Of a stretch of DNA of 64,000 nt, positions 14,688 through 63,275 are shown in pieces. Numbering within the stretch: position 1 is the stretch's first letter; each line of letters starts with the position of its first letter. The DNA lies in contig OZ244799.1 of assembly GCA_965219955.1 (NCBI GenBank), positions 2,720,001-2,784,000 on the forward strand. Reading direction: 5' to 3'. The notes under the pieces are model-generated. The model had not been told where the DNA came from and did not search any database. It worked only from the letters and a program-made list of their open reading frames with translations. This DNA is from a bacterium (GTDB lineage Bacteria; UBA8248). The translations under genes were made by a program, and so were the position numbers.

Positions 14688-14888
14688 AACAAACATATAA
14701 ATCAAATCACCCGGCATGTCAATCGTTCGACTGGCCACGCCCGGATGGCATAACCGACTGATAATACTTGATTAAATAACATATCTTTCGAATTTCCCCT
14801 CTTGCGTTTTCGTCATATTTATGCTTGAATACGCTCTCGTTTGACGTCGCTTGTATGCGATTTGATTACATATTTGTCCGGAGGACAC

Positions 14889-43947: not shown

Positions 43948-44064
43948 ACGATTTCCGTGTCTTTTTGATGGAAAGGCAACCTTGAGGTGCTTCGAAACCT
44001 TACGCTTGACGAACGCCGGATTTGCCAACATAATTGTTTCCAACAATATTGCTGGAGGATTGCA

Positions 44065-45318: not shown

Positions 45319-45333
45319 ACGGGAGGCGAAAAG

Positions 45334-48300: not shown

Positions 48301-50049
48301 AACAGCCTTCGCGAGACGGTCGCGAAAGCCCTCGTCAACAAAGGACATATTCTTCTCGCGTCGACTCGACCGAAGGAGGCCCTGTACGTCTGTGACGAAG
48401 TGGCGCGGCGTTTCGGGGAAAGCGACGCGCCGGTTCTGGTTCACATGGCGGTGGACGCCTTACATCTCAAAGGCGACGCTCTCTTGGGGTTGAATCGGCC
48501 GAACGAAGCGCTCACCGCTTTCGATGAGTCGTTGCGCCGCTCTGAAGGAGCCGAGGAAACAGCCGTTCCAGGTCTCGTGGCGAATGCTCTTCTTGGCAGA
48601 GGGCTCGCCTACGACAGGTTAAACCGGCCCGACGAAGCGCTGGCGGCTTTCGAGGAAGTCGTGCGCCGGTTCGGAGAAAGTGAGACCCCGCTCGTTGGCG
48701 CTGCGGTCACTGTGGCGCTGACGGTGAAAGTACCCCTGCTCGACAGCGCCGACCGGCACCGGGATGCTCTGGACGCGCACGAAGAGCTGGTGCGGCGTGT
48801 GGGTGAGGAAGCGCCCGAGTATCATGAGTTGATTGAACGCTCCCTAATCGGGAAAGCGGATTTCGAGCTGGTCTGCGGAAGGCATGAATCGGCGATCGAA
48901 GCGGCAGAGACGGCGCTTGGGAAATGTCTTCCCGCATCGGTGGAAAACCGGTTGCGGGCTCACTTCATCCGCGCGAAGGCGGCCCTCGCTGGCGGCGATG
49001 CACCCGGATGCGAGCGGGACATCGAGACGATCCTCAAGGAGCTTCCGGACCTTGGGAGTATTCCAAAGGAGCACCTTCATGCATTGATGGAGTTCGGCAT
49101 CCGACTCGGACCGGAGCGAATGCGGGAGCTTATCGAGGTTTCCCCTTCGGCGGATCTCCTTTTGCCGCTCACGACCGCGCTGGCGCAGGAAACGGGAGAG
49201 CGGCCCCGGGTGGCCCGGGAAGTGGAGGAAGTCGCCCGAGATATCCGAAAGGAACTACAAGCACTGGGGAAAAACGCTGGCGATCGAAACCGATATCCGG
49301 ATGATGACGAACACATAAGGACACAGCTGCGAACCAGCGGGATAATCATCAGGGACAAGAAAAATCGGGTGCTGCCGATAAGAAAGGACCCGGTTCGGTT
49401 GGCGGTGGTGGGCAAAAAAGGTGAAAAATCGAATTCCTGGAAAATCTGGATGGAAAAAGATGGTGAAATATATTTTTCAATCCGGGACAACAATCCTGGA
49501 TTCAAAGTGAGTTTACATAAATCCGGAAAGCAGCACATTAAAATGGGAAGTAAGTATTGGGGACAATGGTTCGAACCTGATATCTATGCAGGACCGATGA
49601 TTGCGACTTCGGCCAAATTGGTTTTCCCGGCCTGGGGAATGAGAGAAGCTGAAAGAATGAGCGAAGAAGACAAGGATATCTGGGAGGGTAACGAGATAGA
49701 AATAGAGGCGCCCGAAGAAGGGAGACTGATTACGCTCAAAGCGTTCATCAGAGTGGAGGGCCAGAGGCTGAGGCAAGTAGACGGAAAAAGTGAAACATTG
49801 GCGATATGGCGGCGTGAGGACGGAAAGGAAGCGCATTTGATCGTCTGCGAAGAAGCCGAAAGAAATATGAAAGATGTCGTGAAAAGGGTATTGGAAAACA
49901 AGGCGTTTCTCACGAATATCAAGGAAAATATGGGAGAGGATGCTTTGGATGAGGAACGGGCATTTACAGTAGCGATGGGAGGCCCGGCAGAAGAAGGGGG
50001 GAATTACGTGCTCACGGTTTCGGCGAAATTCAAGGCCGAAGAAGAATAG
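45334..50049 (+). CDS. P-loop ATPase-wHTH-TPR repeat protein with an additional C-terminal domain (1571 aa)
   Basis: YNPGFLSDEE, Walker A GPRGSGKTS, LLVENL, TGGNPR, wHTH, about 16 tandem 43-aa TPR-like repeats, then ~260 aa encoded by A-rich DNA. Confidence 0.88.
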   Translation: MNAVARKYNPGFLSDEEIVASFCVRTSEFESIVEMLRECTESSNPHQLVIGPRGSGKTSLLLRVAAEIRRDAALASRFFPIVFAEESYEVSTAGEFWLECLSRLVVQAPRREGGPDLHRAHDELSKVSDDWTLGERCLGALLDFSDREGKRLVLLVENLNAMFRDMTDPDAGWRLRKVLQNEPRIVLLASATSRFEQIDDPEQALYDLFRTTSLRPLETEECAVLWKTVSGREPRRETIRSLRILTGGNPRLFVIAARFGAGLSFRLLMADLLDLVDDHTEYFRSHLESLPPQERRVYLALADLWKPATTKEIADRARLDTNRCSAQLARLDERGIVEVAGGTARRKQYYLTERMYNIYYLLRRPRGPDRLVDSLIRFMESFYSPRELRDIGVGIAREAKNLDGEMRVLHETAFANLLALPALAEHRMELLEMFPMDVSGISSQGPAFPDGTKPGWSGAETSPLNKVPVHSGSDGSPEAIAQKLLEKGAALSGQNRSEEALEVFDEVLSRYGASKKPALIDSTAKALLRKTEAFWMLKRFEYAVEACEEVVRRYGSVEAPALRETVALAMSNKGIALRELNRPEEALAAHAEVVRRYGASENPDVLVTVAKSLCERGLMLGRMSRFQEALAVSDEMKRRFGEHKATNIVIHVAKNLCDKGTILNNLNRPEEALAVYDEVVRRYGAIDDPTLHEIIAIALLNKGATLGDRDRPKDALATFEEVMRRFGTSKEPAIVASVALAMSNMGFSLSVLERTEEAMATYDEIVRRYETSDQSNVLEVVGKALLNKGKVLDTSNRPKEALAVFDEILARFGADVAPGLRETVATALCNKGIALGNSGRHEEAIVIYDEAVRRFGASVELVLVEMVTKSLLNKGYALGALNRPEEALASYDEAIRHPEEIVKPSILALVAHALVKKGLTLVGLTRLEEALSSYDEAIRRFGTNGDSSVFGLVAQSFLNKGVALASLSRFEEALEACDEVVRRYGGSEANSLRETVAKALVNKGHILLASTRPKEALYVCDEVARRFGESDAPVLVHMAVDALHLKGDALLGLNRPNEALTAFDESLRRSEGAEETAVPGLVANALLGRGLAYDRLNRPDEALAAFEEVVRRFGESETPLVGAAVTVALTVKVPLLDSADRHRDALDAHEELVRRVGEEAPEYHELIERSLIGKADFELVCGRHESAIEAAETALGKCLPASVENRLRAHFIRAKAALAGGDAPGCERDIETILKELPDLGSIPKEHLHALMEFGIRLGPERMRELIEVSPSADLLLPLTTALAQETGERPRVAREVEEVARDIRKELQALGKNAGDRNRYPDDDEHIRTQLRTSGIIIRDKKNRVLPIRKDPVRLAVVGKKGEKSNSWKIWMEKDGEIYFSIRDNNPGFKVSLHKSGKQHIKMGSKYWGQWFEPDIYAGPMIATSAKLVFPAWGMREAERMSEEDKDIWEGNEIEIEAPEEGRLITLKAFIRVEGQRLRQVDGKSETLAIWRREDGKEAHLIVCEEAERNMKDVVKRVLENKAFLTNIKENMGEDALDEERAFTVAMGGPAEEGGNYVLTVSAKFKAEEE

Positions 50050-50109
50050 AAGGTACTTTGATAAGGTGGTCGCACTCTCGATATGACTAGCGGCAACCCT
50101 CGGTTGCGT

Positions 50110-50350
50110 ACGGGACGCTACGCCCGTCCCGTTCTCGTGGCCCTTCATGGAGGTGTTTGGGCTTGCGATCTAGAAGATTGCGCATCGGTGTAGCGCATCG
50201 CTAGGCTGCTTAATATGGACTTCGAGGATTTGGCGGATATCTTCGCAGTGCACGACATCCGATGCGCAATCATACTGCGATGCGCCATGTCCCGACTCCA
50301 AGGCGCCGTACTGGTAGATACCAACGACATACTGAAAGCCCACCAGACAA
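50110..50350 (+). pseudogene. Remnant of an ImmA/IrrE-like C-terminus and PIN-domain gene start
   Basis: Broken frames read PFSWPFMEVFGLAI*, RIARLLNMDFEDLADIFAVH and MSRLQGAVLVDTNDIL. Confidence 0.45.
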
Positions 50351-50469
50351 GATCGGGCCGGCCTCGCGTCGAGTGGTATTCGGGATGAACACTGCTTCTG
50401 TCTCGATCTTATTGGCGGTGCAGATCGTCCATGCGTTCGTGATCCGCGCGTCTGAGTACCAAGCCTGGA

Positions 50470-50765
50470 CGAAGCGCCGCCCGGCATCATCAAGGCGATC
50501 GAGACCTGCTTCACGCGCTCGGAGCGACGGCGGCCTACCAGATCCTTTCGCGCACCATCGCCCGGGAACTGGCCGAGGGAGTCTCTAGGGACTACGAGTC
50601 TGAACTGCCCGATACCGTGTCGTGCTTCCGCGGCGACTTCGAAGCCTGCATCTGGCCGACATGATCGCCGACGTGAGGTTCACCGATGGGGTGGACGTAA
50701 AAGAAACGGGTAGGAGGGCTGCTGGATTCAGGACGGCCATATACCAGATTTTACAGTAACTCCCA
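50470..50765 (+). mobile_element. IS256-family remnant with internal deletions
   Basis: Fragments PGIIKAIETCFTRS, AYQ..SRTIARELA...CF.GDFEACI and LADMIADVRFTDGV...RRAA, followed by the terminus-like CCATATACCAGATTTTACAGTAACTC. Confidence 0.55.
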
Positions 50766-50905
50766 ACCTCAATCTACATTGGCAAAGAAATGTGGTAGCA
50801 GGTATGGTCTGAATCAAGGATTTCATGAGCCCGCCCCAGAAGCTATTCGAAAAACTATGGCCTGTTTTCGGATTAACTTCTTTCTGAATCGGTGTTGGGT
50901 ATAGT

Positions 50906-53752
50906 ATGAATAAACAACGCAATCGCGAAGAAGTGGTTAACACGCAACTTGCGTTATTGATCTCAGAACTCGGCGTCACAGCGGACGCTGAAACGATTCA
51001 AGTTCATGGTAAGCACCGTCCCGATGTCTTGTTCCAACTTCGCGGCTTGCGAATTGTCATTGAAGGTAAATTCCAAGATACGCCGAACGCCGAACAAGTC
51101 GTTCTGGACGATGCTCGAAAACGAGTTTGCGCGGGCATTGCGCATATTGCGGCCGCGACTGTTTATCCTGATCAATTACGAACAACCCCAACTACCAAGA
51201 TAATTGATACCTTGACAGATGCGCGACTTCGTTATCGGCTCGTTACTGAAACTTTCGAGAGTGAAAATTGGTTCGAAGGAAATCCCGCATCACTGATGGA
51301 GGCCCTCCGCAGAGCACAAGAGTCACTTACACAAAACGACATAGTTGAAAAAACAGCCAAAGCGCTTTCGATTCACCTTGAAAGCATCTCGAAGCTCTGG
51401 ATTGGTCAACCTGGCTCCTGCGACCGCCTGTCGAGATTGTTAGGAACTCCCATCCCGATAAATGAAAAGCCGAAAGCAACATCCGAAAGGCGTGAAACTA
51501 CTGCAAAGGTGTCGGCTCTCGTGCTGGCGAACGCTTTCATATTCCAAGAGCAGTTGGCATTAAATGATGAGCGCGTAGATACACTTCGGAAATTAGCGAA
51601 GAATGACGACATTATTGAAGCTACATCGGAACATTGGCGCTGGATTTGGGAAAACATAAACTACACTCCCATCTTCCAGCTTGGGGAACGTATACTTGAT
51701 GAACTACCAGCATTTGCAGGCACTACCAGGATTGTTCAATCTCTCCTCGACGCAGCACAAAAAATCTGCACCGAACAAGCTGCATTGCGTCATGACCTGA
51801 TGGGACGAATTTATCACTGGTTGCTCCACGACGCAAAATATCTTGGCACGTACTATACATCTGTCCCGGCGGCGACTCTGTTGTTGAAAGTTGCTCTGGA
51901 TCTCAAGTGGCCTCATGACTTCGGTAGTGCTCGGGAACTTGCGGACTTCAAAGCCGCAGATCTCGCATGTGGTACTGGAACTCTACTTATGGCCGCCGCA
52001 CAAGCCCTCACCGACAATTTTATTAAAACTCGCGCAGGGGACGACCGAAGCATCGATACGAAAGACTTGTCTGTACTTCATAGTACACTGATGCAAAATG
52101 TCGTCCACGGATATGACATACTGCCGTCTGCGGTACACCTGACAGCATCGACCCTCGCTCTGCTCGCCCCAGAGGTCGCGTTTCGGCAAATGAACCTGTT
52201 CGTTATGCCTGTTGGTATGGATCACGGGAACGCGCGACTAGGTAGCCTAGATTTTCTTTCCGGCAGTGAGATTAAAACACAATTTACTCTGGACAACACT
52301 CACTTAGACACTGTTAGAACAGGGGCAGCAGAATCCGCATTTACTAATGCCCAAATTCCTAATCTTGACCTTTGCGTCATGAATCCACCCTTCGTCAGTA
52401 GCCGTTACGGAAATCGGCTTTTCGGCTCACTGCCAGAGGATAGACCCAAACTCCAGAAAGCACTCTCGAAAGAGGCCAAGAAAATCGGTATCCACACGAC
52501 CGCTGGACTTGGCGCTTTATTCGTTCCGTTGGCAGACAAACACACGAAACCAGGTGGCCGTATTGCGTTCGTTCTGCCAATAGCTCTCGCAACCGGAGAA
52601 GCGTGGGGTCCTGTTCGGAAGTTTATAGTCGAACGATATCATCTCGAAGTCGTCATCACGAGCCACGATCCGTTACGCACCAATTTCTCGGAAAACACTG
52701 AATTATCTGAACTTTTATTCATGGCCCGTAAGCTGAAGCGTGGCGAAAAGGCTGGTTCCACCTACTATGTCAAATTGCGTCGAAATCCCGCCACTATTCA
52801 CGAAGCCCTTGACCTTGCAGATCGAATTTCGACTGGAATCAAGAAGATAAGCGATCAGAATAAACCTGTAACTATTCGCTCTGCGGCAAGAGTTTTGGGG
52901 GAGATCGCAAACCTTCCTAGACCGCATAACAAAGACAATTGGACGAGCGCTATATTCTATCAACATTATCTATTCCAAGTTCATTGGGCACTGGACAAGA
53001 ATTCACTTTTGTCAATCCCCGGCGAATTATCGCAACAACCCATTCCACTTTGTCGTCTCGATGCTCTAGGCGAACTTGGCTATGACGTTCGAGATATTTT
53101 TGACGCCTTTGATGTTGACCGGTCTGCGTCACAGTGGACTCCTTATCCTGCATTTTGGAACCATGACGCCAAACGGGTGTTTCAAATCACCCAAGCGCCA
53201 AATGCTTTCCTAATATCTCGAACGAAGCCAATCGAAGGGCGCAAGCTCAAAAGCGCCACGGCGGTTTGGGCAAAGGCGGGCAAGATTCTATTGGTGTCAA
53301 GACTTTGGCCAATAACGCAAAAGGTGCTTGCTACTGGTTTCAACACAAAAGTGCTTGGCAATACTTGGTGGGCCTTCGATACCGCAAATCTTTCCATCAA
53401 ACAGAGCCAAGCACTGTTACTTTGGATGAACTCAACGCTTGGCTTGCTATTCTACTATGGGAGAAGAGCAATAACCCGAAGTGCTTGGATGCAGATGAAG
53501 AAACCCGCATGGGAATCAATGTTGGTGCTAGACGTTCGGAATTTGAACACAGAACAACTCGATATGCTGTCCACGACTTATAAAATCGTGTCGAAAGAAA
53601 CCTTGCAACCACTCGCACAACTCGACTGCGATCCGGTTCGAATTCAAATTGATGAGGCTCTCTGCAAAACACTCGAATTGCCATCACTCAATCCGATCCG
53701 TGAACTTTTGGTTCGAGAACCTGGCCTTACCGGGTCAGATTCAGACGCCTGA
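50906..53752 (+). CDS. Type IIG-like fused restriction endonuclease / N6-adenine methyltransferase
   Basis: N-terminal RPD...IEGK (PD-D/ExK), GTYYT, DLACGTGT (SAM binding), MNPPF catalytic motif. AT-rich. Confidence 0.85.
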   Translation: MNKQRNREEVVNTQLALLISELGVTADAETIQVHGKHRPDVLFQLRGLRIVIEGKFQDTPNAEQVVLDDARKRVCAGIAHIAAATVYPDQLRTTPTTKIIDTLTDARLRYRLVTETFESENWFEGNPASLMEALRRAQESLTQNDIVEKTAKALSIHLESISKLWIGQPGSCDRLSRLLGTPIPINEKPKATSERRETTAKVSALVLANAFIFQEQLALNDERVDTLRKLAKNDDIIEATSEHWRWIWENINYTPIFQLGERILDELPAFAGTTRIVQSLLDAAQKICTEQAALRHDLMGRIYHWLLHDAKYLGTYYTSVPAATLLLKVALDLKWPHDFGSARELADFKAADLACGTGTLLMAAAQALTDNFIKTRAGDDRSIDTKDLSVLHSTLMQNVVHGYDILPSAVHLTASTLALLAPEVAFRQMNLFVMPVGMDHGNARLGSLDFLSGSEIKTQFTLDNTHLDTVRTGAAESAFTNAQIPNLDLCVMNPPFVSSRYGNRLFGSLPEDRPKLQKALSKEAKKIGIHTTAGLGALFVPLADKHTKPGGRIAFVLPIALATGEAWGPVRKFIVERYHLEVVITSHDPLRTNFSENTELSELLFMARKLKRGEKAGSTYYVKLRRNPATIHEALDLADRISTGIKKISDQNKPVTIRSAARVLGEIANLPRPHNKDNWTSAIFYQHYLFQVHWALDKNSLLSIPGELSQQPIPLCRLDALGELGYDVRDIFDAFDVDRSASQWTPYPAFWNHDAKRVFQITQAPNAFLISRTKPIEGRKLKSATAVWAKAGKILLVSRLWPITQKVLATGFNTKVLGNTWWAFDTANLSIKQSQALLLWMNSTLGLLFYYGRRAITRSAWMQMKKPAWESMLVLDVRNLNTEQLDMLSTTYKIVSKETLQPLAQLDCDPVRIQIDEALCKTLELPSLNPIRELLVREPGLTGSDSDA

Positions 53753-54107: not shown

Positions 54108-54491
54108 TCATTCGGAAGTACTTTCCGCGAGTGAATTCTGCGACTCACGGGCGTCTTTCATGGTCCGGTCGAGTTCATTCTTGCGTCCTTCGCGCACCAA
54201 TTCATCCCGCTTCAGCGTGGAAAGAAGGTAAACCCCGCGATAGATCCGCTCTATCTGGGCTCCAATTTCAGGTGGAAACCCCGTAGAATTTGCGGTCAGC
54301 TTGCCCGTAGCGAAACTCAATGCGGCATGGCGAACGAGTTCGGCAGCCGTCATTCCGCGCTCCCTGGCCTCCTTTTCAATGCAAGTCCACTCGGAATCGG
54401 AGAACCGGATCGAGCGTGGCGAACGCGATTCACCGTGTTTATCATCGGAATTCTCGCTGGAATCGCCGGCGATGGAATGGTTTTCGGTCAT
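54108..54491 (-). CDS. Ribbon-helix-helix protein, probable relaxosome accessory factor
   Basis: RSIRFSDSEW..IEKEARERGMTAAELVRHAAL RHH pattern. GGAGG RBS, adjacent to the oriT candidate. Confidence 0.7.
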   Translation of the reverse strand: MTENHSIAGDSSENSDDKHGESRSPRSIRFSDSEWTCIEKEARERGMTAAELVRHAALSFATGKLTANSTGFPPEIGAQIERIYRGVYLLSTLKRDELVREGRKNELDRTMKDARESQNSLAESTSE

Positions 54492-54599: not shown

Positions 54600-54850
54600 C
54601 ACACATATTTAGGAAATACTATGTCCAGCGTATGCCATAAGCATACGCCCCTTGTGAAGCACAAGGAATTCAATGGGATACGGGCGTGTTACGTCGTAAT
54701 ACGCTCTCCCAGCGAAAGCGGGGCGGTATTTGAGGGCGTTTGAGCAAGGAACGACATGCCTAGCGCACGATTGACCTGCACCCCGCAGCCCGCTGCGTGG
54801 GGTGTGAAATCCGAAGCGCCGAAGGGCGGCTAACGGCGGATTCCTGGGAA
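54600..54850 (+). other. Candidate oriT (MOB_F-type nic)
   Basis: TGCGTGGGGTGT|G at 54794-54806 matches the F-plasmid nic sequence. Hairpin GCGTATGC-cataa-GCATACGC at 54628-54648. Lies between the RHH gene and the leading-region genes. Confidence 0.55.
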
Positions 54851-55084
54851 CGAGCGACAGGGAAATTTTCGCCGGAGAGGATGGCTAGCGGGAGCCGTCG
54901 CGGCGATTGAGCGGACAGAGCGAGGGGTAAGGAGGTGTGAGGGCGCTGGAACTTGCGCCTGGATTCACAAGCGGCGGGAGCACGGGGCGCTGCATCTTGC
55001 GCTTTACATCACAAGCAGACGAACGACACGGGAAGCAACGAGCCGCGTCGCCGGGGCGACGACGCGACTCGTCGAGCGTTCACG

Positions 55085-56017
55085 TCACGCTACTTTTTGA
55101 ACGGGGATGCCGAGGCTTCGGGCTTTGTCGACGAGGTTGTCCGTGATGCCCGAACCGGGGAACGCGACCACGCCCTTGGGGAGGAGGGAGAGCAGCTCGT
55201 CGTTGCGCCGGAAAGGAGCCGCACGTCCATGCGCATCCCAATCCGGCTTGCAGACGATCTGGTGGACGCCGTTGCGCTCGGCCCAGCCGGCTGCAATCTT
55301 CTCGGCGCCGGGGCCGCCGCCGTGGACGAGGACGACGTCGGCGTACTTGGCCTTGACCTTGTTGAGATGCGCGATGATTTTGCCCGCGTCGCCGGCCTCC
55401 TTTCCGCCCGCGACGGCGACGAGTGTTCCCTGCGGCAAGTGCGCGGTGTTCTCGCGGTCCTTTTTCGCGCGCTGGAAGTCTCGCGCCTCGATTACCGCAG
55501 AGGTCAGCTTGCCGGTCTGGGAGACGTGCGATCCTCTCCTGGGCCGCCATACCTCGCCGGTCTCGACGCGGTAGGCCTCTGCGGCGGCGTCACGGAGTTG
55601 TTCAAAAGCATCACGCCGAGCATTAAAGTTTTGCGCCCGGTCGGTCGCGAGTTCGAGTTCGCGGGACCTGATTTCGGAGCCGTCCTGCTCGCGCTGCATT
55701 TCGCGGATGCCGGGGATGAGCTTGTCGGCGGCGCGGTCGAGGCGCTGTGTCTGGGCGTCGAGGGTGTTGACGAAACCCCACAGGAGGTTTCTTCGCTCGT
55801 CGGCCAGCTGCGTGCCGTCGGGTGCTGCCTCGGCGAGCAGGTGGAATGCCTTGAGGACGGCGGCGGTGGATTCCGCCTCGCCCCAGACGGGCCGGTTGTC
55901 GAACTCGTCCGGTCCGGGGGTCGCGCCGAAGAGTGCTGCCTGTTCGCAGACCATGGCGGTGAAGGATTCGTTCTGCGCTTCGTGCTCTGCGTACTCGTGA
56001 ATTGCGGTGGCAGTCAT
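55085..56017 (-). CDS. DUF2493 / SLOG (YspA-like) domain protein
   Basis: C-terminal VAVAGG...VLVHGG.PGAE...W..HGRAAPFRRND...VAFPGSG.T SLOG signature. AAGGAG RBS. Confidence 0.85.
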   Translation of the reverse strand: MTATAIHEYAEHEAQNESFTAMVCEQAALFGATPGPDEFDNRPVWGEAESTAAVLKAFHLLAEAAPDGTQLADERRNLLWGFVNTLDAQTQRLDRAADKLIPGIREMQREQDGSEIRSRELELATDRAQNFNARRDAFEQLRDAAAEAYRVETGEVWRPRRGSHVSQTGKLTSAVIEARDFQRAKKDRENTAHLPQGTLVAVAGGKEAGDAGKIIAHLNKVKAKYADVVLVHGGGPGAEKIAAGWAERNGVHQIVCKPDWDAHGRAAPFRRNDELLSLLPKGVVAFPGSGITDNLVDKARSLGIPVQKVA

Positions 56018-56038
56018 TGTTCACTCCTTTGGTTGTCC

Positions 56039-56410
56039 TCAGGCGAGGGGATGGTTGAATTCGGGAAGAGCGTAGCCACGCTCGTTGCGCCCCACTTCTT
56101 TGGGCATCTCGTCGAGATACCTGGCGGCCCACTCGGCGGCGCGCGCGAGTACGTCGCCGTGGCACGGGAGGGGATGGCAGTGGCAGCCGAGTTCGCAGCC
56201 CTGGAGGTCGGCGAGTTCGTAGAGGTTGACCTCCTCCTGCCGGATTTTTCTCCAGAGCCATCGCCGGTATTTTTCAATCACCTCGGCGCGCTCGCCGTCC
56301 TGGCCGACCCGGAAGGGATTTCCCCACTTCGTCGCTCGGTCGATCCTTACCAGCAATCCACTGCCGATATCCGCAACGTAGTCGTTCAGGTTCACCACGG
56401 TGGTTTCCAT
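56039..56410 (-). CDS. DUF4326 domain protein
   Basis: IDRATKWGNPF...VIEKYRRWL...LGCHCHPLPCHGDVL. Confidence 0.88.
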   Translation of the reverse strand: METTVVNLNDYVADIGSGLLVRIDRATKWGNPFRVGQDGERAEVIEKYRRWLWRKIRQEEVNLYELADLQGCELGCHCHPLPCHGDVLARAAEWAARYLDEMPKEVGRNERGYALPEFNHPLA

Positions 56411-56446
56411 GCCTTTCTCCTTTCCAGAGAGTTAACGGATGCGCTT

Positions 56447-56670
56447 CTTAGCGTCCCATTTTCAGCACGTAAGGGCATCGGGTTTTCGATGCCCGTAGGC
56501 GAGCGAATCAAGGGCTTGTCATTTTCCGGGGGGTACCCGAAAAACACGGTTCATAGAGCGGTGCTCCTGTTTTTCGCCGCTCGACGTTTTTTGGGGGGCA
56601 CCGGCAAATGATGGCCGCTTGCGGCCACCCTTTATTCGCTCGGCGTTCGTGCTAAAATGGGAGCGCTAAG
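56447..56670 (-). promoter_or_regulatory. Frpo-like single-stranded-DNA promoter
   Basis: Long imperfect inverted repeat (56447-56514 pairs with 56628-56670). The distal arm carries TTTATT-16nt-TGcTAAAAT. Nested stems 56473-56494, 56519-56545/56586-56611 and 56612-56627. Confidence 0.7.
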
Positions 56671-56965
56671 AGAGAGAGGGTAGTATCGCCACCGGGACAC
56701 AAGAGCCTCTGGTGTTTCACGATGAAGGCGAAGCTCATCGGGAAACAGTCTCTCATGCTGCGGAAAGGGTCATTTCGGGCCGTTTTTCCGGCCCGAAATT
56801 CCCGCAGCGGGGGGTAGATCGAGCCACTATCTTAAATTTGGAGTGATTGCAGGCGCAGACCGATCTTCCGTGAACACGGTTCAACGTTCACGGAACCGGA
56901 GGATTTACCGGGTGTTCCCGGTAGAGGAGAGAGCCGACAGGGTGGACCTTCTCTGGATAGCGGGC

Positions 56966-57003
56966 AAAAGAAAAGGGGTCGACGCGCGAGGCGCCGACCC
57001 CTT
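56966..57003 (-). terminator. Intrinsic terminator downstream of ssb
   Basis: Minus strand reads AAGGGGTCGGCG...CGTCGACCCCTT followed by TTCTTTT. Confidence 0.75.
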
Positions 57004-57009
57004 GTGAGC

Positions 57010-57444
57010 CTAGAACGGAATTTCGCTGTCTGCTCCATCGACTGTCGCCGCCACAGCCGCCGTCTCGGCGTGCGCGCCGTTTCCGTTCCCGTTCGCCTTC
57101 TCGAGGAACTGGATTCTCCCGCCGGGCGCGATGAGGATCTCGGTCGAGAACCGGTCCGAGTCCTCATCATCCTTCTTCCAGCGGCGGGTCTGCAATTTGC
57201 CGGCCACGTAGACCAGGCGGCCCTTCTTCGCGTGGCGTTCGAGCATGTCGACGAGGCCGGGCTGGAAGGTGACGATCCGGTGCCACTCGGTCTTGTCCAC
57301 CCGGTCGCCGGATTGCCGGTCCACGTAGCCCTCATCGGTGGCGATGGAAAGATTCGCGACGCGCCCGCCGCTCGTGAGATGGTTGATGGTGACGTCGGCG
57401 CCGAGACGCCCGATCAGTTCCGCCCTGTTGAGTCCGAATGCCAT
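57010..57444 (-). CDS. ssb: Single-stranded DNA-binding protein
   Basis: LNRAELIGRLG, TEWHRI, KGRLVYVAGKLQTRRW, C-terminal EIPF. AAGGAG RBS. Confidence 0.95.
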   Translation of the reverse strand: MAFGLNRAELIGRLGADVTINHLTSGGRVANLSIATDEGYVDRQSGDRVDKTEWHRIVTFQPGLVDMLERHAKKGRLVYVAGKLQTRRWKKDDEDSDRFSTEILIAPGGRIQFLEKANGNGNGAHAETAAVAATVDGADSEIPF

Positions 57445-57520
57445 TGTAATACTCCTTCATGGTGTGAGTGAGAAAAAGTGACGGGAGAGAGAGCCTTTCT
57501 CTCCACCCCCCCGGTTCGCC

Positions 57521-57646
57521 CTACACGCTGCAAAACTCCTCCTCGCCCCCCGTCTCTTCGCGTATCTTGCGGATCGTGTACGCGTCGAGCCCGAGTTCTG
57601 CGAGCAGTTCGTCCGTGGTGGGAACGTCGACGTCATTCTCGTACAT
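57521..57646 (-). CDS. Acidic 41-aa microprotein, cassette copy 2
   Basis: AGGAGG RBS. MYENDVDVPTTDELLAELGLDAYTIRKIREETGGEEEFCSV*. Confidence 0.8.
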   Translation of the reverse strand: MYENDVDVPTTDELLAELGLDAYTIRKIREETGGEEEFCSV

Positions 57647-57852
57647 GGCCAGGCCTCCTGTCGGGGTTGTCGCCGGCACGGGAGGGAGACCGTCTCCCTC
57701 TCCCCTCCGGGCGTATCGCCCGGCTCCCCGCTTCCCTCTACCTCTCCCGTGGAGGTCCTCATCCGGTGAGGAACGTTCGCCGACACTCCCGGGACTTGCC
57801 TTTGCCGTGGATTCGTGTCAGACAGCGCGCGGACATGAGGAAGGGAGGAGGT

Positions 57853-58308
57853 ATGGAACGACTCCGGTTCCGGATTCCGGCGCTGTTGTGGCTGCCGGCG
57901 GGGATTGTCACCGAAGAGGTTCTGCGCACGGGGTCCGCGCAGGGGATGATGACACTGCTCGCCGCCCCGGAGTTGCTGTCCGCAGCAGCGTGCGGCGTCC
58001 CGCTCGCGCTCGCCTGCAGGCGTCTTTCCCGCTCGGGGTATCCAGGCCCCGCCCTGGTGGCGTGGTTGCTGCTCGGCGCCGCCGCAATGGTGAGCTTCGC
58101 CGGTGCGTTCCCCGCAGGCGTTCAGGCGGTACTGGCCTCCCTTCCGGTATGGGCCGTGGTATGGCGTCTCGAGCGGCGGCCGAGCCGGCTGGAATTCGCT
58201 CCCTCGTCCGAATGGCGCGGGCGCGGAGGTTCGCTCGCCCGGTTCATGCTGCGTGCGTTGAGCGCTCCCGAAGCCCCCCGCCGATACCGCCTCCGGCGGA
58301 CCTCCTGA
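57853..58308 (+). CDS. Small membrane protein, cassette copy 2
   Basis: GGAGGAGG RBS before ATG 57853. Paralogue of 34008..34367. Confidence 0.7.
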   Translation: MERLRFRIPALLWLPAGIVTEEVLRTGSAQGMMTLLAAPELLSAAACGVPLALACRRLSRSGYPGPALVAWLLLGAAAMVSFAGAFPAGVQAVLASLPVWAVVWRLERRPSRLEFAPSSEWRGRGGSLARFMLRALSAPEAPRRYRLRRTS

Positions 58309-58408
58309 CGGCGCCGGGCCGGCTGCGGAGCAGGGCGGCGGCGTACCCTCCCCCCGGCCCGTTCCCCCCGCCGGCGGCCGGCCGGCTACACGTGTGACGG
58401 CAGCCCGG

Positions 58409-59218
58409 CTAACGACCTGTGAGCGCCGCCATCCAGGAGCTCTCCTCGACGACCTCCACCTCATCGCGGGAGAGTTTTTCGAAGGCGAGGCACATCGCCA
58501 CCTCCTCCCATGAGTCCAGTGGCCCGTGCTCGATGCCCGTTTTGAGTTCGACTATGGTGAAGCGCGGCGGAAGGACCGGCATCCCCTTGTGCTCGCCTGA
58601 TGAGTGGTATGAGCGCACTGCGCACGGGGCGCATCTGGCGGCTCCATCGCTTGGGGATTGGCAGTCGACACACACGCCGCGTGCCCGCCTGCCGCGATAG
58701 CGCGTCCTGCTCGCGGCGTTCTTTTGCGGACGGCGCTTCACGTCCCTTGCGGCGCACGAAGCGCACGTCGAAGCCCCATCGCCGGTTTCCGCCCCGCATC
58801 TTCCGCAAAGTCCCCTGGCGCGCCTTTTCTCGTAAAGGGCCCGCTCCGCCGCGCGCCTCGCCTCCCGGCAGGCCTCACAGACGGCGCCGCCCTCTGCGGG
58901 TTTTCGTTTTCCGCAGCGCGGGCACAAGCCGGCCTCGAGGCGCTCGCGCCTTCGCTTCCCCGCCCTCTCGCGCGCCATGCGGCGGCGGCTTTCGGGATTG
59001 CGGCCGCCGTATTGCGCTCCCTCGAGTTTTCCCTTGAGGTATCGGGCGCGCTCGGCGGCCCGGCTTCTTTCCAGGCAGGCCTCGCAAAGACTTCGCCCGG
59101 ACGCAGGGCGTCTGCGTCCGCATTTGACGCATTTGCCCAGCGCGCGGCGCTCGGCCGTCCTGCGCCTGTGGCGTTCGCGCTCGTATTCGCGTCGTCTTTC
59201 AATATCCCTGTGGGGCAT
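58409..59218 (-). CDS. Basic multi-Zn-ribbon protein, cassette copy 2
   Basis: Collinear paralogue of 33105..33917 with all CxxC pairs and DSWEEVAMCLAFEKLSR conserved. Confidence 0.8.
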   Translation of the reverse strand: MPHRDIERRREYERERHRRRTAERRALGKCVKCGRRRPASGRSLCEACLERSRAAERARYLKGKLEGAQYGGRNPESRRRMARERAGKRRRERLEAGLCPRCGKRKPAEGGAVCEACREARRAAERALYEKRRARGLCGRCGAETGDGASTCASCAARDVKRRPQKNAASRTRYRGRRARGVCVDCQSPSDGAARCAPCAVRSYHSSGEHKGMPVLPPRFTIVELKTGIEHGPLDSWEEVAMCLAFEKLSRDEVEVVEESSWMAALTGR

Positions 59219-59294
59219 GGTTTTCTCCGGGTGTCGGTGAAGTCGTTCGGACGGCGAGACGTCTTGCGGGCGGAAGTCCTCCCGGGGGAGTTCC

Positions 59295-59591
59295 TCACCG
59301 GCACAGCATGCGGGCCCAGACGAGGTGCTCGCCCCACAGCTGCAGCCCGCTTCCGGGGACCTTGAGCCCCGTGCAGACGATGAGTTCGTCGCACGCGGGC
59401 CGCATCTCGCGCACCGCCCGGCGCGAGGCCGTCACGCGCTTTCCCTTGCGTTCGCCCGCCTCTGCCGGTGGGAGGGGCCTGATGTCGCCGTCGGCGGACC
59501 TGTAGCGCTTCACTTCGTAGCGCTCATCCGCCAGGCCTTGAGCGAGGAGATGGGTGAGGAAGGTGTCCGCTTCTCTTCGGGGTCTACGCAT
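59295..59591 (-). CDS. Hypothetical protein, cassette copy 2
   Basis: AAGGAGG RBS. Paralogue of 32775..33089. Confidence 0.75.
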   Translation of the reverse strand: MRRPRREADTFLTHLLAQGLADERYEVKRYRSADGDIRPLPPAEAGERKGKRVTASRRAVREMRPACDELIVCTGLKVPGSGLQLWGEHLVWARMLCR

Positions 59592-60056
59592 CGCGCGCCT
59601 CCTTTACGGGGTGGATGGGGGCGGCGGGAACGAGCCTCTCGCGGACTCTCCCCCCGCCGCCCCCTCCCGGCCAGGCTCCGCCTCTTTCCGGCGCGAAGCG
59701 AGTTTTTCAAGGGGCGTGCGCGATGAACGACCGCCCGGTCCCCGGGGCGTTCGCCGCCATGTGAGGCGCGCTGCCATACTGATAACCATCTCCGGGACTT
59801 GCGCCGTTATCACCCCGCCAGCGAAAGATAACGACAAGGTCGTCAGTGATACTTGAGCTGTAGAAAACGATGACTTTCCAGAGAAACAAGGCACGCTATA
59901 AGCTCATCTGGAATATGCGAAGCCTGTTGCCCGATACCGGGGTTCTCCTGTAAATTCGCCCGTTGTTCGTGAGGTATTCAAGAATCGGATATGCCCCGTG
60001 CATCGACTCAGCGTAGTGCCTGAATCGAATTGATGCGCCCGAAAGAAATAATGGTA

Positions 60057-63000
60057 ATGAGCAAAAAGGCGGATACCGGACCTCAAGGAAGTGGCGAGAA
60101 TGAGACGCACTCCTTGAAGGTCTCGAAGAAGGCATTACGTTTGAGGGTTGAACGAAGAGGTTTTGCGTCGCTCTTGTACGCGATACTGCGGCCTAAAGAC
60201 GCCAGGGCAGCTTTCGTGAATGAGCACTCGCTGAGCCTGATGCATGGGTCCGGATACACGGAAATTCCTATCGAGGACATCACGTCGGTCAAGGTCGAAA
60301 CCGGACAGTACTGGAGCCGCATACGCTTCCATCATACCGCAGGATCCGCAACTGTGTCGGGGCTGGAGCGAGATGCCATCAGGGCATTCGCCGAAGTGCT
60401 TGAGACCGCAAGGATATCGTGTTGGCGCCGGACACTGGCAACGCAGGTCATGCAGCTTCAATCGATACTTGAATACCAGGAACATCTCGCGAATCCGCCG
60501 GAGCACATGGCGAGCGTTTTCCTTGAGTTGAGACGCGATGCGGAAAAAGCGGTGAACCAATTCGCGGCTCGTTGGCCGAAGTCGTTGGCGAATGCCCCGG
60601 AAACCCGGCTACTGAAGAAGGTTCAAGACTTTCTGGAAAGCCCGGAGCTTCGGCGGGCGGAAGAAATCGCCAGAGTACGCTGGTGGCGTCGGAAGTTGGC
60701 GACGGAGATCGCAACGCTCCATTCGGTACTTGAGCGCCTGAAGCAACTCGCAAATCCCTCTGAATACCAAGCGAGCAGTATATTCCGTGATCTGAGACAA
60801 GATGCTGAGAAGGCGGTGGCTCAATTTGTGGAGCGTTGGCCCAAGTCATTGCCAAACGCCCCGGATTTCCTGGTAGTGAAGTCGATAAAGGAATTTCTGG
60901 AAGACCCGGAGCGTCTGCGCGCAGAAGTGAACAACACCTTCGTCGAAATGGAATTGAAGAGGTCACAAGGATTCTTCGACCGGATTGAGACCCGACCGCT
61001 TACCGAAGAGCAACGCCGGGCGGTCGTCGTGGATGAGGACCGAAACCTGGTGGTCGCCGCGGCCGGCAGCGGCAAGACCTCGGTGATCGTCGCCAAGGCC
61101 GGATGGCTTCTCCACAGGAAGTACCTGAATCCGTCGGAATTGCTGCTCCTGGCGTTTGCGAAAGACGCCCAGCAAGAGATGGAAGCAAGGGTCCGCAAGA
61201 GACTCGGTGACGAGGCGGCGCAAGGGATGACCGTCAGAACTTTCCACGGTCTGGGACTGGCGATCATTGGTGAGGCCGAAGGCAGGCGGCCGGCTTTGAC
61301 CAAGGCGTCCCAGGACGAAAACGCGCTGTTTAATCTGCTCAAGGACATCGTCAACGAACTGACAGAAGAGCGTAAATTCTTTGCAGACTTACTGAAGTGG
61401 TTCCAGTCGCAGTTCGCACTCTACCGGAGCGAGCATGAATTCAGTTGTTGGGGTGAGTATTGGGAGTATATCCGGAGGCACGAAATAATATCGCTCAAAG
61501 GCGAGAGGGTCCGGAGCTACGAGGAATGCGAGATTGCCAACTTCCTCTATCTAAACGGCGTGCCCTACGAATACGAACGCATTTATCAGCATGAGACCGC
61601 CACGCCCGAGAAGGGTCCATACAAACCGGATTTCTATCTGAACGAAGCCGGAATCTACATTGAGCATTTCGGCCTCGACGCTTCGGGAAACACTGCACCG
61701 CACGTCCCACGGGACAAGTATCTCGAAGAAATGGAATGGAAGCGCGCGATTCACGGAAAACACGGCACTATCCTCATCGAGACATTCAGCCATGAGCATA
61801 CCGCTGGCAAGCTGACCGAGAATCTGGCCGAGAAACTCCGCGCTCATGGCGTAACTCTGTCTCCCATACCCCGTGAAGAGTTCTTCACTGTGCTGAGCCG
61901 GGAGAAACGGATTGACCCTTTCATTCGCCTGTTGGCAACCTTTCTCAAGCACTTCAAGGGCGCGCGGCTTACTTTTCCTGAAGTAGCTCGACGGGCCGCA
62001 GGTCACAGGAACTCTTTGCGGGCTCAAGTCTTCCTCGCCTTGTTCCAGCCGGTCTTTGAGCGATATGAGGAAACACTCTCCGGCTCGGGACAGATCGATT
62101 TTCACGACATGATCTCCAGGGCGACGGACCATGTCGAGGCCGGACGCTATCAAAGCCCATTTGCCTGTGTCCTGGTCGACGAGTTTCAGGACATTTCGCC
62201 GGGCCGGGCGAGGTTGCTCAAGGCGCTCTTGGAGAAATCGCCTGGAGCCCGGCTGTTCGCCGTCGGTGACGACTGGCAGGCGATATACCGCTTCGCCGGC
62301 TCTGACATCGGAATCATGCGGGAATTCAAAGAGCATTTTGGCGACTACGAACGTATCGACCTGGGAACAACTTTTCGATGTGACGAGCGCATCGTCTCAG
62401 TCTCTAACAAATTCATCGTGCGCAACCCTGCGCAGATTCCCAAGACGGTTGCTTCGCCGCATCGGGCGGACGGCCCTTGTGTCCATGTCGGTCTTCCTGG
62501 TGAGCAACGGCTTCCCCTGTTAAACGAGACGCTCGACAAGATTGCCGAAGAGGCCAGTGCTTTCGGGGAAAAATCGAGCGTGCTGTTGCTCGGCCGCTAC
62601 AATCACACGCGACCGAAAAACTTTTCCGCACTCAACAGGATGTATCCGAATCTCTTGATTTCTTTCAAGACTGTACACCGATCCAAGGGCCTTGAGGCGG
62701 ATTACGTCGTGGCGCTCGACCTGTGTGCCGGAAAGCATGGTTTTCCGTCCGAGATCGACGACGAACCACTTTTCGATCTGGTTCTCTCGACGCCCGAAGG
62801 GTATCAGAATGCGGAGGAGCGGCGCCTGTTCTACGTCGCCCTCACCCGTGCGAGACGCCGTGTCTTCCTGCTTGCCGAGGGTGGTCCGATTTCTCCCTTC
62901 ATTACGGAACTGATTGAGGATGGATACGGCGTCACCGTCTTTGGCCGAGCGCCGGAGGACGACGTTTCCTGTCCTGTATGCATAAAGGGACATCTCGTGC

Positions 63001-63275
63001 TGCGCGAAAGGAAAAGAAACGGCGGCAATTTCTATGGTTGTTCGAACTTTCCTTATTGCGAGCATGCGCAGAGACCGTGCCCGCTTTGCGGCAAAGGGTT
63101 GCCGATTAAGGTAGGCAAAGCATTTCGCTGCCGAGATTGCGGCCAATCCATCGAGGCTTGCCCTGAATGCGAAGGCTGGTTACAGATGAAAAACGGTCAA
63201 TATGGTTCTTTTTGGGGATGTTCGAATTATCCTTCGTGCACATTCACCCGCGACCATAGGGAAAATAGTCAATGA
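60057..63275 (+). CDS. UvrD/helicase IV (HelD)-like SF1 helicase with inserted PD-(D/E)xK-like domain and C-terminal topoisomerase-type Zn fingers
   Basis: AAAGSGKT, VDEFQD, VGDDWQAIY, TVHRSKGLE, EERRLFYVALTRAR. Insert RSYEE..IAN.L...YEYE...KPDFY...YIEHFG. C-terminal CPxC...FYGCSNFPYC repeats. Start approximate. Confidence 0.9.
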   Translation: MSKKADTGPQGSGENETHSLKVSKKALRLRVERRGFASLLYAILRPKDARAAFVNEHSLSLMHGSGYTEIPIEDITSVKVETGQYWSRIRFHHTAGSATVSGLERDAIRAFAEVLETARISCWRRTLATQVMQLQSILEYQEHLANPPEHMASVFLELRRDAEKAVNQFAARWPKSLANAPETRLLKKVQDFLESPELRRAEEIARVRWWRRKLATEIATLHSVLERLKQLANPSEYQASSIFRDLRQDAEKAVAQFVERWPKSLPNAPDFLVVKSIKEFLEDPERLRAEVNNTFVEMELKRSQGFFDRIETRPLTEEQRRAVVVDEDRNLVVAAAGSGKTSVIVAKAGWLLHRKYLNPSELLLLAFAKDAQQEMEARVRKRLGDEAAQGMTVRTFHGLGLAIIGEAEGRRPALTKASQDENALFNLLKDIVNELTEERKFFADLLKWFQSQFALYRSEHEFSCWGEYWEYIRRHEIISLKGERVRSYEECEIANFLYLNGVPYEYERIYQHETATPEKGPYKPDFYLNEAGIYIEHFGLDASGNTAPHVPRDKYLEEMEWKRAIHGKHGTILIETFSHEHTAGKLTENLAEKLRAHGVTLSPIPREEFFTVLSREKRIDPFIRLLATFLKHFKGARLTFPEVARRAAGHRNSLRAQVFLALFQPVFERYEETLSGSGQIDFHDMISRATDHVEAGRYQSPFACVLVDEFQDISPGRARLLKALLEKSPGARLFAVGDDWQAIYRFAGSDIGIMREFKEHFGDYERIDLGTTFRCDERIVSVSNKFIVRNPAQIPKTVASPHRADGPCVHVGLPGEQRLPLLNETLDKIAEEASAFGEKSSVLLLGRYNHTRPKNFSALNRMYPNLLISFKTVHRSKGLEADYVVALDLCAGKHGFPSEIDDEPLFDLVLSTPEGYQNAEERRLFYVALTRARRRVFLLAEGGPISPFITELIEDGYGVTVFGRAPEDDVSCPVCIKGHLVLRERKRNGGNFYGCSNFPYCEHAQRPCPLCGKGLPIKVGKAFRCRDCGQSIEACPECEGWLQMKNGQYGSFWGCSNYPSCTFTRDHRENSQ

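Follow-up and report, generated by a model that had tools for sequence, protein, structure and literature searches.

Does a 64,000-nucleotide stretch of a bacterial genome of the lineage UBA8248 carry an origin of conjugative transfer (oriT), and if it does, which genes would enter a recipient cell first? The stretch, called the window below at its full length, spans positions 2,720,001 to 2,784,000 of contig OZ244799.1 (GenBank assembly GCA_965219955.1). Our answer, to which we give a probability of roughly 0.82, is that the conserved block at 54722-54828 is the oriT of Element 1, a 31.6-kb integrative mobilizable element. The comparisons below support a MobF-type oriT with a core identical to that of the F plasmid and an F-like leading region, housed in an integrative element of an uncultured lineage that lacks a type IV secretion system (T4SS). 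The features on and beside the block are the following.

54108-54491, minus strand: ribbon-helix-helix (RHH) gene, candidate relaxosome accessory protein; NikA-like (24.1 bits, below the cut-off of 27) and transcribed away from the nick.
54628-54648: perfect 8-bp inverted repeat, GCGTATGC-N5-GCATACGC, candidate RHH operator.
54722-54828, plus strand: predicted oriT core, the conserved block.
54785-54788 with 54793-54796, plus strand: stem of the first oriT hairpin.
54797-54805, plus strand: predicted recognition stretch, GTGGGGTGT.
Between 54805 and 54806, plus strand: predicted nick.
54817-54828, plus strand: second oriT hairpin, CGCC-GAAG-GGCG, 12 nt past the predicted nick.

The plus strand reads as the 13-mer TGCGTGGGGTGTG at 54794-54806, and around it (54776-54812) as CCTGCACCCCGCAGCCCGCTGCGTGGGGTGT followed past the nick by GAAATCC; a preliminary description of this DNA had placed an F-like nic site here, upstream of the RHH gene, and the sequence confirms the motif. 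In F, the substrate of the relaxase TraI is given in part of PMC2504302 as 5'-TTTGCGTGGGGTGT continuing into GGTGCTTT-3', cut after GTGT. The F plasmid record NC_002483.1 carries the identical 13-mer at 66156-66168 on its minus strand, and the window core and the F nic core agree at 13 of 13 bases, so the earlier identification of this motif with the F nic sequence holds. A nic core of the MOB_F type, a hairpin with TGCGT, N3 and GT(G/C)T and then N past the nick, is present at 54785-54806 on the predicted transferred strand. The 13-mer occurs once in the window and once in the 4,283,615-base genome, both strands counted. The composition-based expectation for an exact match is about 0.004 per window, and matches with at most one mismatch appeared in 15 of 100 shuffles of the window. 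By itself the 13-mer is only suggestive, and its weight comes from context.

One part of that context lies 5' of the core. The RHH gene has its start codon 314 nt 5' of the predicted nick on the opposite strand, and its position and orientation relative to nic are conserved across 5' modules. All four RHH proteins tested gave NikA-like matches, of 21.5-24.1 bits against the cut-off of 27. At the place equivalent to 54628-54648, the paralogous copy has an inverted repeat of another sequence, and its RHH protein is 56% identical; a differing repeat at the same place fits a protein operator. The 54628-54648 palindrome was also considered as a nic site and set aside, as it lacks the TGCGT..GGTGT core.

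The core is conserved within the genome. Self-comparison of 30-115 kb (coordinates above 64000 extend the window numbering into the genome) revealed an inverted second copy: 38568-43863 matches 90047-84783 at 90% identity, the oriT block 54665-54920 matches 69084-68827 at 81%, and the DUF2493-DUF4326 block matches its inverted copy at 89%. The genome holds four TrwC genes and six oriT-like sites, the window site being site B. All six keep the hairpin and TGCGT-NN-GGTGT beside a common gene module with the order ORF59295, zinc ribbon, acidic open reading frame (ORF), ssb, DUF4326, DUF2493, whose genes are always directed at the site.

The same holds among relatives. A DUF2493 protein search, with one genome per species, yielded 80 loci, all in metagenome-assembled genomes; the loci are often many per genome, and copies within genomes are 86-96% identical. 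The strict pattern TGCGTNN[GT]GTGT is found in 63 of the 80, on the strand antisense to DUF2493. The other 17 comprise 14 loci with TGCGT-TCC-GGTGT, two with GGTAT and only one, L082, without a core. The hairpin with TGCGT-N2-3-GGT(G/A)T is therefore kept in 79 of 80 related loci, always antisense to the DUF2493-DUF4326-ssb module. The preliminary description had allowed that the 13-mer, which lies in a palindrome, might be chance; its retention at these loci and at the six paralogous sites, on the same relative strand, speaks against that. The distance from the core to the DUF2493 stop codon is mostly about 200-290 nt, rising to about 2 kb in 12 loci and to 3.5 kb in L081. An extended pattern gave 51 matches in five related whole genomes, which carry 3 to 14 nic sites each, against one match for a reversed control.

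A stricter pattern that includes the second hairpin defined a set of 83 sites, made up of the six of this genome and 77 related loci (L082, L083 and L088 were missed). Invariant or near-invariant in this alignment are the first hairpin, TGCGT, GGTGT and the second hairpin, CGCC-GAAG-GGCG. Across the 81 distinct rows, the hairpin positions are paired in 98.2% overall; the first hairpin is paired in 97.3% of cells, and its fourth pair (30-36) is GC in 38 rows, TA in 36 and CG in 4. The hairpin covariation score was equalled in 0 of 500 shuffles, and it comes from a single covarying pair only. The 54817-54828 hairpin is near-invariant across the 83 sites (99.4% paired) and displays no covariation because it never varies.

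Element 1 encodes both a relaxase and a coupling protein.

39008-41143, plus strand: type IV coupling protein of the TraD (F) type (PF10412, 464 bits).
41140-43947, plus strand: MobF/TrwC relaxase-helicase, 935 aa.

The preliminary description had the 13-mer cut by a MOB_F relaxase, and a gene for such an enzyme lies in the same element at 41140-43947. Its protein scores 286.4 bits with PF08751 (cut-off 25), 296.2 with the MobF model NF041492 (cut-off 100) and 286.2 with TIGR02686 (cut-off 145.5), and it matches the PDB structures of TrwC of R388 (1.1e-63) and TraI of F (1.6e-53). The tyrosine pairs YY..YY and the histidine triad HxDxxR..HTH (ASYYERDGYYAKD, FRHDASRNLDPQLHTHAV) align with TrwC and TraI, and the C-terminal part is an SF1B helicase (AAA_30, 164.7 bits; UvrD_C_2; weak TraI_hel_assoc_N). 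The coupling protein scores 500.9 bits with TIGR02759 (TraD_Ftype), just below the cut-off of 521. The predicted nick lies 10.86 kb from the end of the relaxase gene (43947), with a STAND-like ATPase, an AAA+TPR protein and an N6-methylase between; the distance of about 11 kb and the intervening defence cargo were both foreseen, and the cargo slot is present in both element copies.

A secretion channel is encoded elsewhere in the genome, where an F-type T4SS set lies at 2.569-2.586 Mb (TraL, TraE, TraK, a TrbI-like TraB, TraC, TraW, TraU, TraN, TraF and TraG_N), with TrwC3 and its coupling protein on one side and oriT site D on the other. PF03135 had no match in the genome. The coupling protein of this F-type island is 88% identical to that of the window, and the leading side of the island carries ParB_N-like, Sbn helicase and toprim genes. 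The resident F-type island could supply the channel to Element 1.

On the other side of the nick lies the predicted leading region, which was scanned with Pfam, NCBIfam and PADLOC.

55085-56017, minus strand: DUF2493/YAcAr gene, the first leading gene; an N-terminal helical domain and a C-terminal SLOG (YAcAr) nucleotide-binding fold (Pfam).
56039-56410, minus strand: DUF4326 protein (Pfam, 88 bits).
56446-56671, plus strand (the predicted transferred strand): long imperfect hairpin of 226 nt, candidate Frpo-like single-strand promoter or priming site for DUF4326-DUF2493.
56973-57003, minus strand: terminator-like hairpin 3' of ssb.
57010-57444, minus strand: element-borne single-stranded DNA-binding protein, SSB (PF00436; TIGR00621, 98 bits).
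57478-58308, plus strand: putative membrane ORF, an open frame.
57521-57679, minus strand: acidic ORF of 52 aa, 80-92% conserved in paralogs.
58409-59218, minus strand: zinc-ribbon protein with repeated CxxC.
59295-59591, minus strand: ORF59295, 98 aa, the last gene of the block directed at the nick.

The six minus-strand ORFs of this list (55085-59591) all lie 3' of the nick and antisense to the predicted nicked strand. The preliminary description had every gene to the right of nic on the minus strand except a membrane gene. The minus-strand frames stand; the plus-strand membrane ORF has 185, 164 and 158 substitutions at the three codon positions and thus no codon periodicity. At the five other genome sites (series B to H) and in F, leading genes likewise use the nicked strand as template, and the proposed parallel with F was borne out on the record NC_002483.1.

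Element 1 itself is best called an integrative mobilizable element, not a conjugative one, with probable limits at about 34962-66581 (31.6 kb) that rest on a pair of attachment (att) cores and a split gene.

34962-34977, plus strand: attL core, ACATGTTTGAGAAACA; partner ACATGTTTGAGAAGCA at 66566-66581 in window numbering (2566-2581 of locus L001).
35102-36403, plus strand: tyrosine integrase of Element 1 (Pfam Arm-DNA-bind_3 and Phage_integrase).

The att cores, direct repeats of 16 nt, match at 15 of 16 bases, and the break is bounded on both sides by ACATGTTTGAGAA(A/G)CA. The ssb of a sister element is split at this point, with residues 1-71 ending at 34978 and residues 67-144 resuming at 66568 (an overlap of residues 67-71), which indicates that Element 1 is inserted in the ssb of the sister element. 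Insertion at the same place, ssb residue 66-68, is seen in six of the 69 related loci that have an ssb match (L015, L041, L058, L066, L073 and L080) and suggests a recurrent insertion site. The ssb of Element 1 itself differs at this site, reading GACATGCTCGAACGCCAC rather than GACATGTTTGAGAAGCAC. Elsewhere, ssb is cut at residue 28 in L045, L051 and L067 (L067 with an adjoining integrase) and at residue 41 in L053 and L083.

How would such a system work? After excision, the RHH protein would bind the repeats 5' of the core. The relaxase would recognise the short hairpin and the single-stranded recognition stretch, cut the plus strand between T54805 and G54806, and stay on the 5' end; the coupling protein would then deliver the complex to a channel of the F type encoded in trans, the simplest source being the F-type conjugative island at genome 2.564-2.604 Mb. 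The plus strand would enter the recipient 5' to 3' from 54806 rightward, so the genes for DUF2493 (SLOG), DUF4326, SSB, the acidic ORF, the zinc-ribbon protein and ORF59295 would be the first DNA to arrive, with the entering strand as template. The hairpin at 56446-56671 may let RNA polymerase or primase start on the single strand. What we infer from this arrangement is the nicking itself, which strand is transferred, where the helper channel comes from, that the leading genes are expressed early and that they act against defence.

Comparison with known systems places the locus between two well-studied plasmids. Like F (TraI, MOB_F12), it has the nic core TGCGTGGGGTGT with G past the nick, an inverted repeat before nic, and an RHH gene where F has traM, whose start lies 311 nt 5' of the motif on the opposite strand. 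In F, ssb, psiB and an antirestriction gene lie 3' of the nick with the nicked strand antisense; here ssb lies in the corresponding place together with other predicted early genes. Both the coupling protein and the T4SS of the sister island are F-type. Unlike F, the relaxase has 935 aa rather than the 1756 aa of the TraI/DNA helicase I chain (5n8o_A), traM, traY, traJ, psiB and an ardA-type antirestriction gene are missing, the genes for coupling protein and relaxase point the other way with respect to the nick, from which 10.9 kb of cargo separates them, and the element is integrated and T4SS-less in an uncultured lineage.

The R388 system (TrwA-TrwB-TrwC, MOB_F11) provides the closest solved relaxase domain, that of TrwC. 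It has an RHH accessory protein, to which the RHH gene here is a candidate counterpart, and it shares a hairpin whose proximal arm ends in TGCGT and a short single-stranded stretch to the nick. The R388 core, GTATTGTCT, differs. The R388 oriT abuts trwA-trwB-trwC, which form one operon, and its channel is P/T-type. Integrative mobilizable elements that hitch on a resident island have the same inventory of integrase, att repeats, oriT, relaxase and coupling protein without a T4SS, and here a related full island resides in the same genome; the differences are the target, an ssb in the leading region of a sister element, and the cargo slot between relaxase and accessory gene. Alphaproteobacterial plasmids with modules of Sbn helicase, toprim and DUF2493 (for example pAtCFBP4996b) resemble the F-type island in this clustering, although pAtCFBP4996b is typed MPF_T. 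Full-length homologs of DUF2493, about 45% identical, are present in 735 plasmid records, most of them from alphaproteobacteria and 471 of them typed conjugative; strawberry-notch helicase and toprim genes lie next to them. Leading-region islands with Frpo/ssi promoters, as presented in parts of Samuel et al. 2024 (PMC11541004), are alike in the entering strand as template, in ssb and in a long imperfect hairpin with promoter-like boxes upstream of early genes. They differ in that the region here has no detected known anti-defence family and its hairpin no detected Frpo similarity.

The hairpin deserves attention in its own right. A terminator-like hairpin follows ssb, so DUF4326 and DUF2493 need a start of their own. 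As single-stranded DNA, the 599-nt spacer folds with -156.3 kcal/mol, against -100.6 +/- 4.6 for shuffles (z = -12.06), and it contains nested inverted repeats (56446-56469 with 56648-56671; 56500-56514 with 56628-56642). The 3' arm reads TTTATT-N16-TGCTAAAAT, and many relatives have TTGACC-N15-TGCTAAAAT; the -35 box is poor in either form (TTTATT; TTGACC, whose spacer is 15 nt). Of 86 strands searched, 57 have both arms; the remaining 29 come from truncated loci or from clades farther away. TGCTAAAAT persists in 56 of these 57, L034 and L067 contain compensatory changes, and AAGGAG precedes the DUF4326 ATG. In the folded plus strand, the 3' arm would be the non-template strand and transcription would exit the stem about 40 nt before the DUF4326 start; in duplex DNA, the promoter-like boxes would face away from the genes. 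Frpo elements are described as working by the same single-strand promoter logic (PMC11541004, in part). Rfam gave only sub-threshold chance matches and no detected similarity to known Frpo elements. On this evidence, the odds that the hairpin is a single-strand promoter are about even.

The six genome sites are mosaics, and the seams lie at the nick. Sites B and C have a common 5' flank through GTGT and differ from +1 (GAAATCC vs ACAACCC). The 3' flanks of sites B and D are about 91-93% identical, and their 5' flanks are unrelated. Sites C and H have a common 3' flank, and sites D and H a common 5' flank in which the modules hold a different NikA-like RHH gene in equivalent position and orientation. 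Among all 3403 site pairs, 197 have a 3' flank at least 85% identical and a 5' flank at most 60% identical in gapped alignments, and in 106 of these 197 the first 5'-side difference falls at -6. Positions -1 to -5 are GGTGT in 81 of 83 sites and GGTAT in two, and -6 is the first freely varying position. The opposite class, with the same 5' flank and different 3' flanks, is empty among the site pairs under gapped alignment, because all loci were picked via DUF2493. Forty pairs with the left flank the same and the right different, which an ungapped flank comparison had produced, were an indel artefact.

One and the same core type can be followed by various sequences: seven different 3' starts occur after CTGCGT-GG-GGTGT and five after ATGCGT-CC-GGTGT. 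Across the 83 sites, the variable core block is CC in 26, GG in 24, TCC in 14, CG in 10, CT in 4, CA in 4 and TA in 1; immediately past the nick, 58 sites have G and 25 have A. On the plainest reading, a 5' module (RHH gene, operator repeats and hairpin) and a 3' leading module would have been swapped at the nick or within a few bases of it. TrwC recombines two nic copies, a capacity reported for the R388 relaxase in part of PMC4176350, and the boundary would be the footprint expected from relaxase-catalysed joining of two nic sites, which falls short of proof.

Do core variants go with particular relaxases? In this genome, GG cores go with TrwC1 and TrwC2 (relaxase domains 96% identical) and CC cores with TrwC3 and TrwC4 (86%), with 74-79% identity between the two groups. 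A wider pairing took 31 relaxase domains, 27 from the five related genomes and the four of this genome, each matched to the closest site on its own strand; related domains are not independent of one another, and nearest-site pairing may err in nested islands. On that tree the core label changes 11 times, against a mean of 15.3 for shuffled labels, and 0 of 200 shuffles were as low. Three identical relaxase domains adjoin CA, CG and GG sites, and three GG sites lie in the CC clade. A strict pairing of relaxase clade and variable bases was rejected, as the wider tree gives loose clustering only. The variable core bases may simply be tolerated positions.

Several points weigh against our reading and its extensions. 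The relaxase sequence is nearer TrwC of R388 than TraI of F, and R388 uses a different nic core. The coupling-protein and relaxase genes lie on the nick strand, the reverse of F. No T4SS family was found among the scanned ORFs of 34.96-66.58 kb, and that Element 1 can work with the channel of the resident F-type island is an assumption. An extended palindrome overlaps the core. A promoter scan of 56350-57100 gave none. In 53 of 54 hairpin sequences, the strand predicted to be transferred is the more stable when folded (mean -5.1 kcal/mol); a control inside DUF2493 is similar (-3.1 kcal/mol, 49 of 54) and one farther out gives +2.7 (16 of 54), so the asymmetry was not used as evidence for the transferred strand. 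As for module exchange, 3'-flank homology is partly built in, the loci having been picked via DUF2493. The two variable core bases follow the relaxase tree only loosely.

The rival that survives best grants a true MobF oriT by descent and holds that the element is now an inert fossil that neither excises nor transfers, with a 'leading region' that has no present function. The lack of a secretion system in the element agrees with it, as do its nesting in another element, the degenerate copies in the genome (site H without a coupling protein, sites E and F without a relaxase) and the MAG-type assembly of the source genome. However, the genes for integrase, coupling protein, relaxase and RHH protein have open, full-length frames, as does every leading gene; the att cores differ at just one of 16 bases, family copies are many within genomes, at 86-96% identity, and the ssb insertion site has been reused (six of 69 loci). 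We consider an inert island improbable.

Less probable still is a working oriT in the AT-rich region upstream of the coupling-protein/relaxase operon (38.57-39.0 kb), as in R388, with the 54.8-kb motif secondary or a relic.

38568-39007: region upstream of the coupling-protein/relaxase operon, with nic-like site A at 38619-38634 (minus strand) and conserved ATACGAA repeats.

Site A (GGGGTGTGA, minus strand, 38620) has the canonical position and strand for an R388-type DNA transfer and replication (Dtr) operon, a short GC hairpin precedes its GCAGGGGTGT with GAC past the nick, and the upstream region is 78% conserved with the paralog. However, site A is without TGCGT, its paralog reads GGGACGTGA with family-invariant bases broken, and its sequence varies in relatives (GGGGTATGAC, GGGATATGAC, GGGGTGCGGC). 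A nic-like core occurs in one of 24 coupling-protein upstream regions (three from this genome and 21 from relatives), at -970. Site A (38619-38660) is thus not conserved among such regions and was rejected as the oriT. A 35-nt piece of the region recurs beside T4SS genes in the conjugative island, as a shared operator might, and the upstream region is probably promoter or operator DNA.

Equally hard to credit is that hairpin and core form another cis element, either a rolling-circle double-strand origin cut by the same HUH enzyme or a DUF2493 regulatory or terminator hairpin: HUH relaxases and Rep proteins do use similar hairpin-plus-nick sites (PMC4814116, in part), the core lies about 280 nt past the DUF2493 stop and a second invariant hairpin follows it, but the core is identical to the experimentally proven nic of F and the entire arrangement is that of F, the Pfam scan found no Rep gene and the relaxase-helicase beside the coupling protein is the only HUH enzyme, and the best-conserved part is the core rather than a T-tract terminator.

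With an oriT at 54722-54828 as the preferred reading, what might the early genes do? The DUF2493 protein was modelled from an alignment of 31 sequences (predicted local distance difference test, pLDDT, 84.9), with a long helical N-terminal half and a C-terminal Rossmann-like domain. A Foldseek search with this model gave nothing at E <= 0.001; the top matches were LOG/SLOG proteins (1rcu, 2a33, 1wek and 5wq3), at E of about 2e-3 to 3e-2, and the Cam1 ligand-binding domain. In one relative, a protein of 1411 aa contains two copies each of YAcAr and DUF4326, and another has NADAR, a DprA-like region and YAcAr in a fusion. DUF4326 is placed by Iyer and colleagues, in part of PMC9503650, in the rhodanese-phosphatase superfamily, with viral fusions to SLOG, Macro and NADAR, and is proposed there to process ADP-ribose-derived phosphates. 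According to part of a bioRxiv preprint (10.1101/2025.06.06.658234), the anti-Avs phage protein ORF83 is LOG/DprA-like and its homologs carry DUF4326.

The remaining leading genes are less telling. The acidic ORF, the zinc-ribbon protein and ORF59295 had no match in the libraries scanned, and psiB and ardA were not detected there; ssb is the hallmark that is present. Pfam and PADLOC scans of the leading region detected no known anti-defence family. The names DUF2493, DUF4326, YAcAr and DprA were not found in 10 supplementary files of PMC11541004, and literature on DUF2493/DUF4326 and YAcAr/SLOG, within a scope short of full texts, yielded no leading-region placement. An anti-defence role of the leading genes is no more than a reasoned lead. 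Of most interest is the SLOG-DUF4326 pair, as candidate blockers of bacterial immunity. A bolder scenario, which we regard as doubtful, would make DUF2493-DUF4326 an anti-defence module of conjugative elements that has so far gone unrecognised, turned on by a hairpin promoter on the single strand and destroying nucleotide- or ADP-ribose-derived immune signals or removing ADP-ribose from the incoming strand; separately, exchange at the nick would shuffle leading modules among co-resident islands, and related elements would insert into the leading-region ssb of their rivals.

The rest of Element 1 includes the following.

36743-38170, minus strand: SIR2-like defence gene (weak Pfam SIR2_2; PADLOC SIR2 models down to 1.4e-17).
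43987-53752, plus strand: variable cargo slot between relaxase and RHH.
43987-45318, plus strand: STAND-like ATPase (Pfam).
45334-50049, plus strand: AAA_16+TPR protein, 1571 aa (Pfam), with weak PADLOC mad8/mad2 matches in this cargo slot.
50906-53752, plus strand: N6 methylase, type IIG-like (Pfam; weak PADLOC type IIG match).
60030-63275, plus strand: UvrD-type helicase with topoisomerase-type zinc ribbons (Pfam; PADLOC GajB-like).

The sister element has the same gene order with other cargo in the slot, namely an SNF2 helicase, a DUF1156 methylase and DUF499 (L001 6603-17994), and different cargo at the same place marks the position as a cargo slot. The UvrD-type helicase lies inside Element 1 and outside the leading orientation, and the element also holds a few unknown ORFs.

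Some further observations concern the neighbourhood. The stretch 57680-58408 evolves fast (67-71% identity between paralogs) and has long ORFs on both strands. A near-perfect GC-rich hairpin at 59614-59668 lies between ORF59295 and the divergent helicase gene, where overlapping Rfam matches were at chance level only; 59592-60029 does not fold significantly (z = -1.41). To the left of about 32.4 kb, the window consists of ordinary chromosome. That part contains tandem tyrosine recombinases (14841-15911 and 16065-17225, plus strand), similar pairs of which adjoin TrwC3 and TrwC4, and, among unannotated ORFs, one with a phage terminase GpA ATPase domain (10774-11832, minus strand) that may be a prophage remnant. 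Two oriT sites at genome 1868917 and 1900190 (minus strand; L093 and L092) have full leading modules and lie 31 kb apart in direct orientation. Near them there is only a C-terminal fragment of a relaxase, and they may be hitchers that lack a relaxase or copies in decay.

The block at 54722-54828 would provide an experimentally tractable oriT for a large family of F-like islands, present in many copies in uncultured bacteria, and the family forms a natural series of nic variants to set against matched relaxases. The module boundary at the nick may be a sequence footprint of relaxase-mediated recombination in nature. With a fixed entry point and strand, six unknown genes would become ranked candidates for early entry. 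Among these, the SLOG-DUF4326 pair would tie conjugation to phage nucleotide and ADP-ribose conflict systems of the kind treated in parts of PMC9503650 and 10.1101/2025.06.06.658234. If the hairpin upstream of DUF4326 is indeed a single-strand promoter, that device would extend beyond enterobacterial plasmids.

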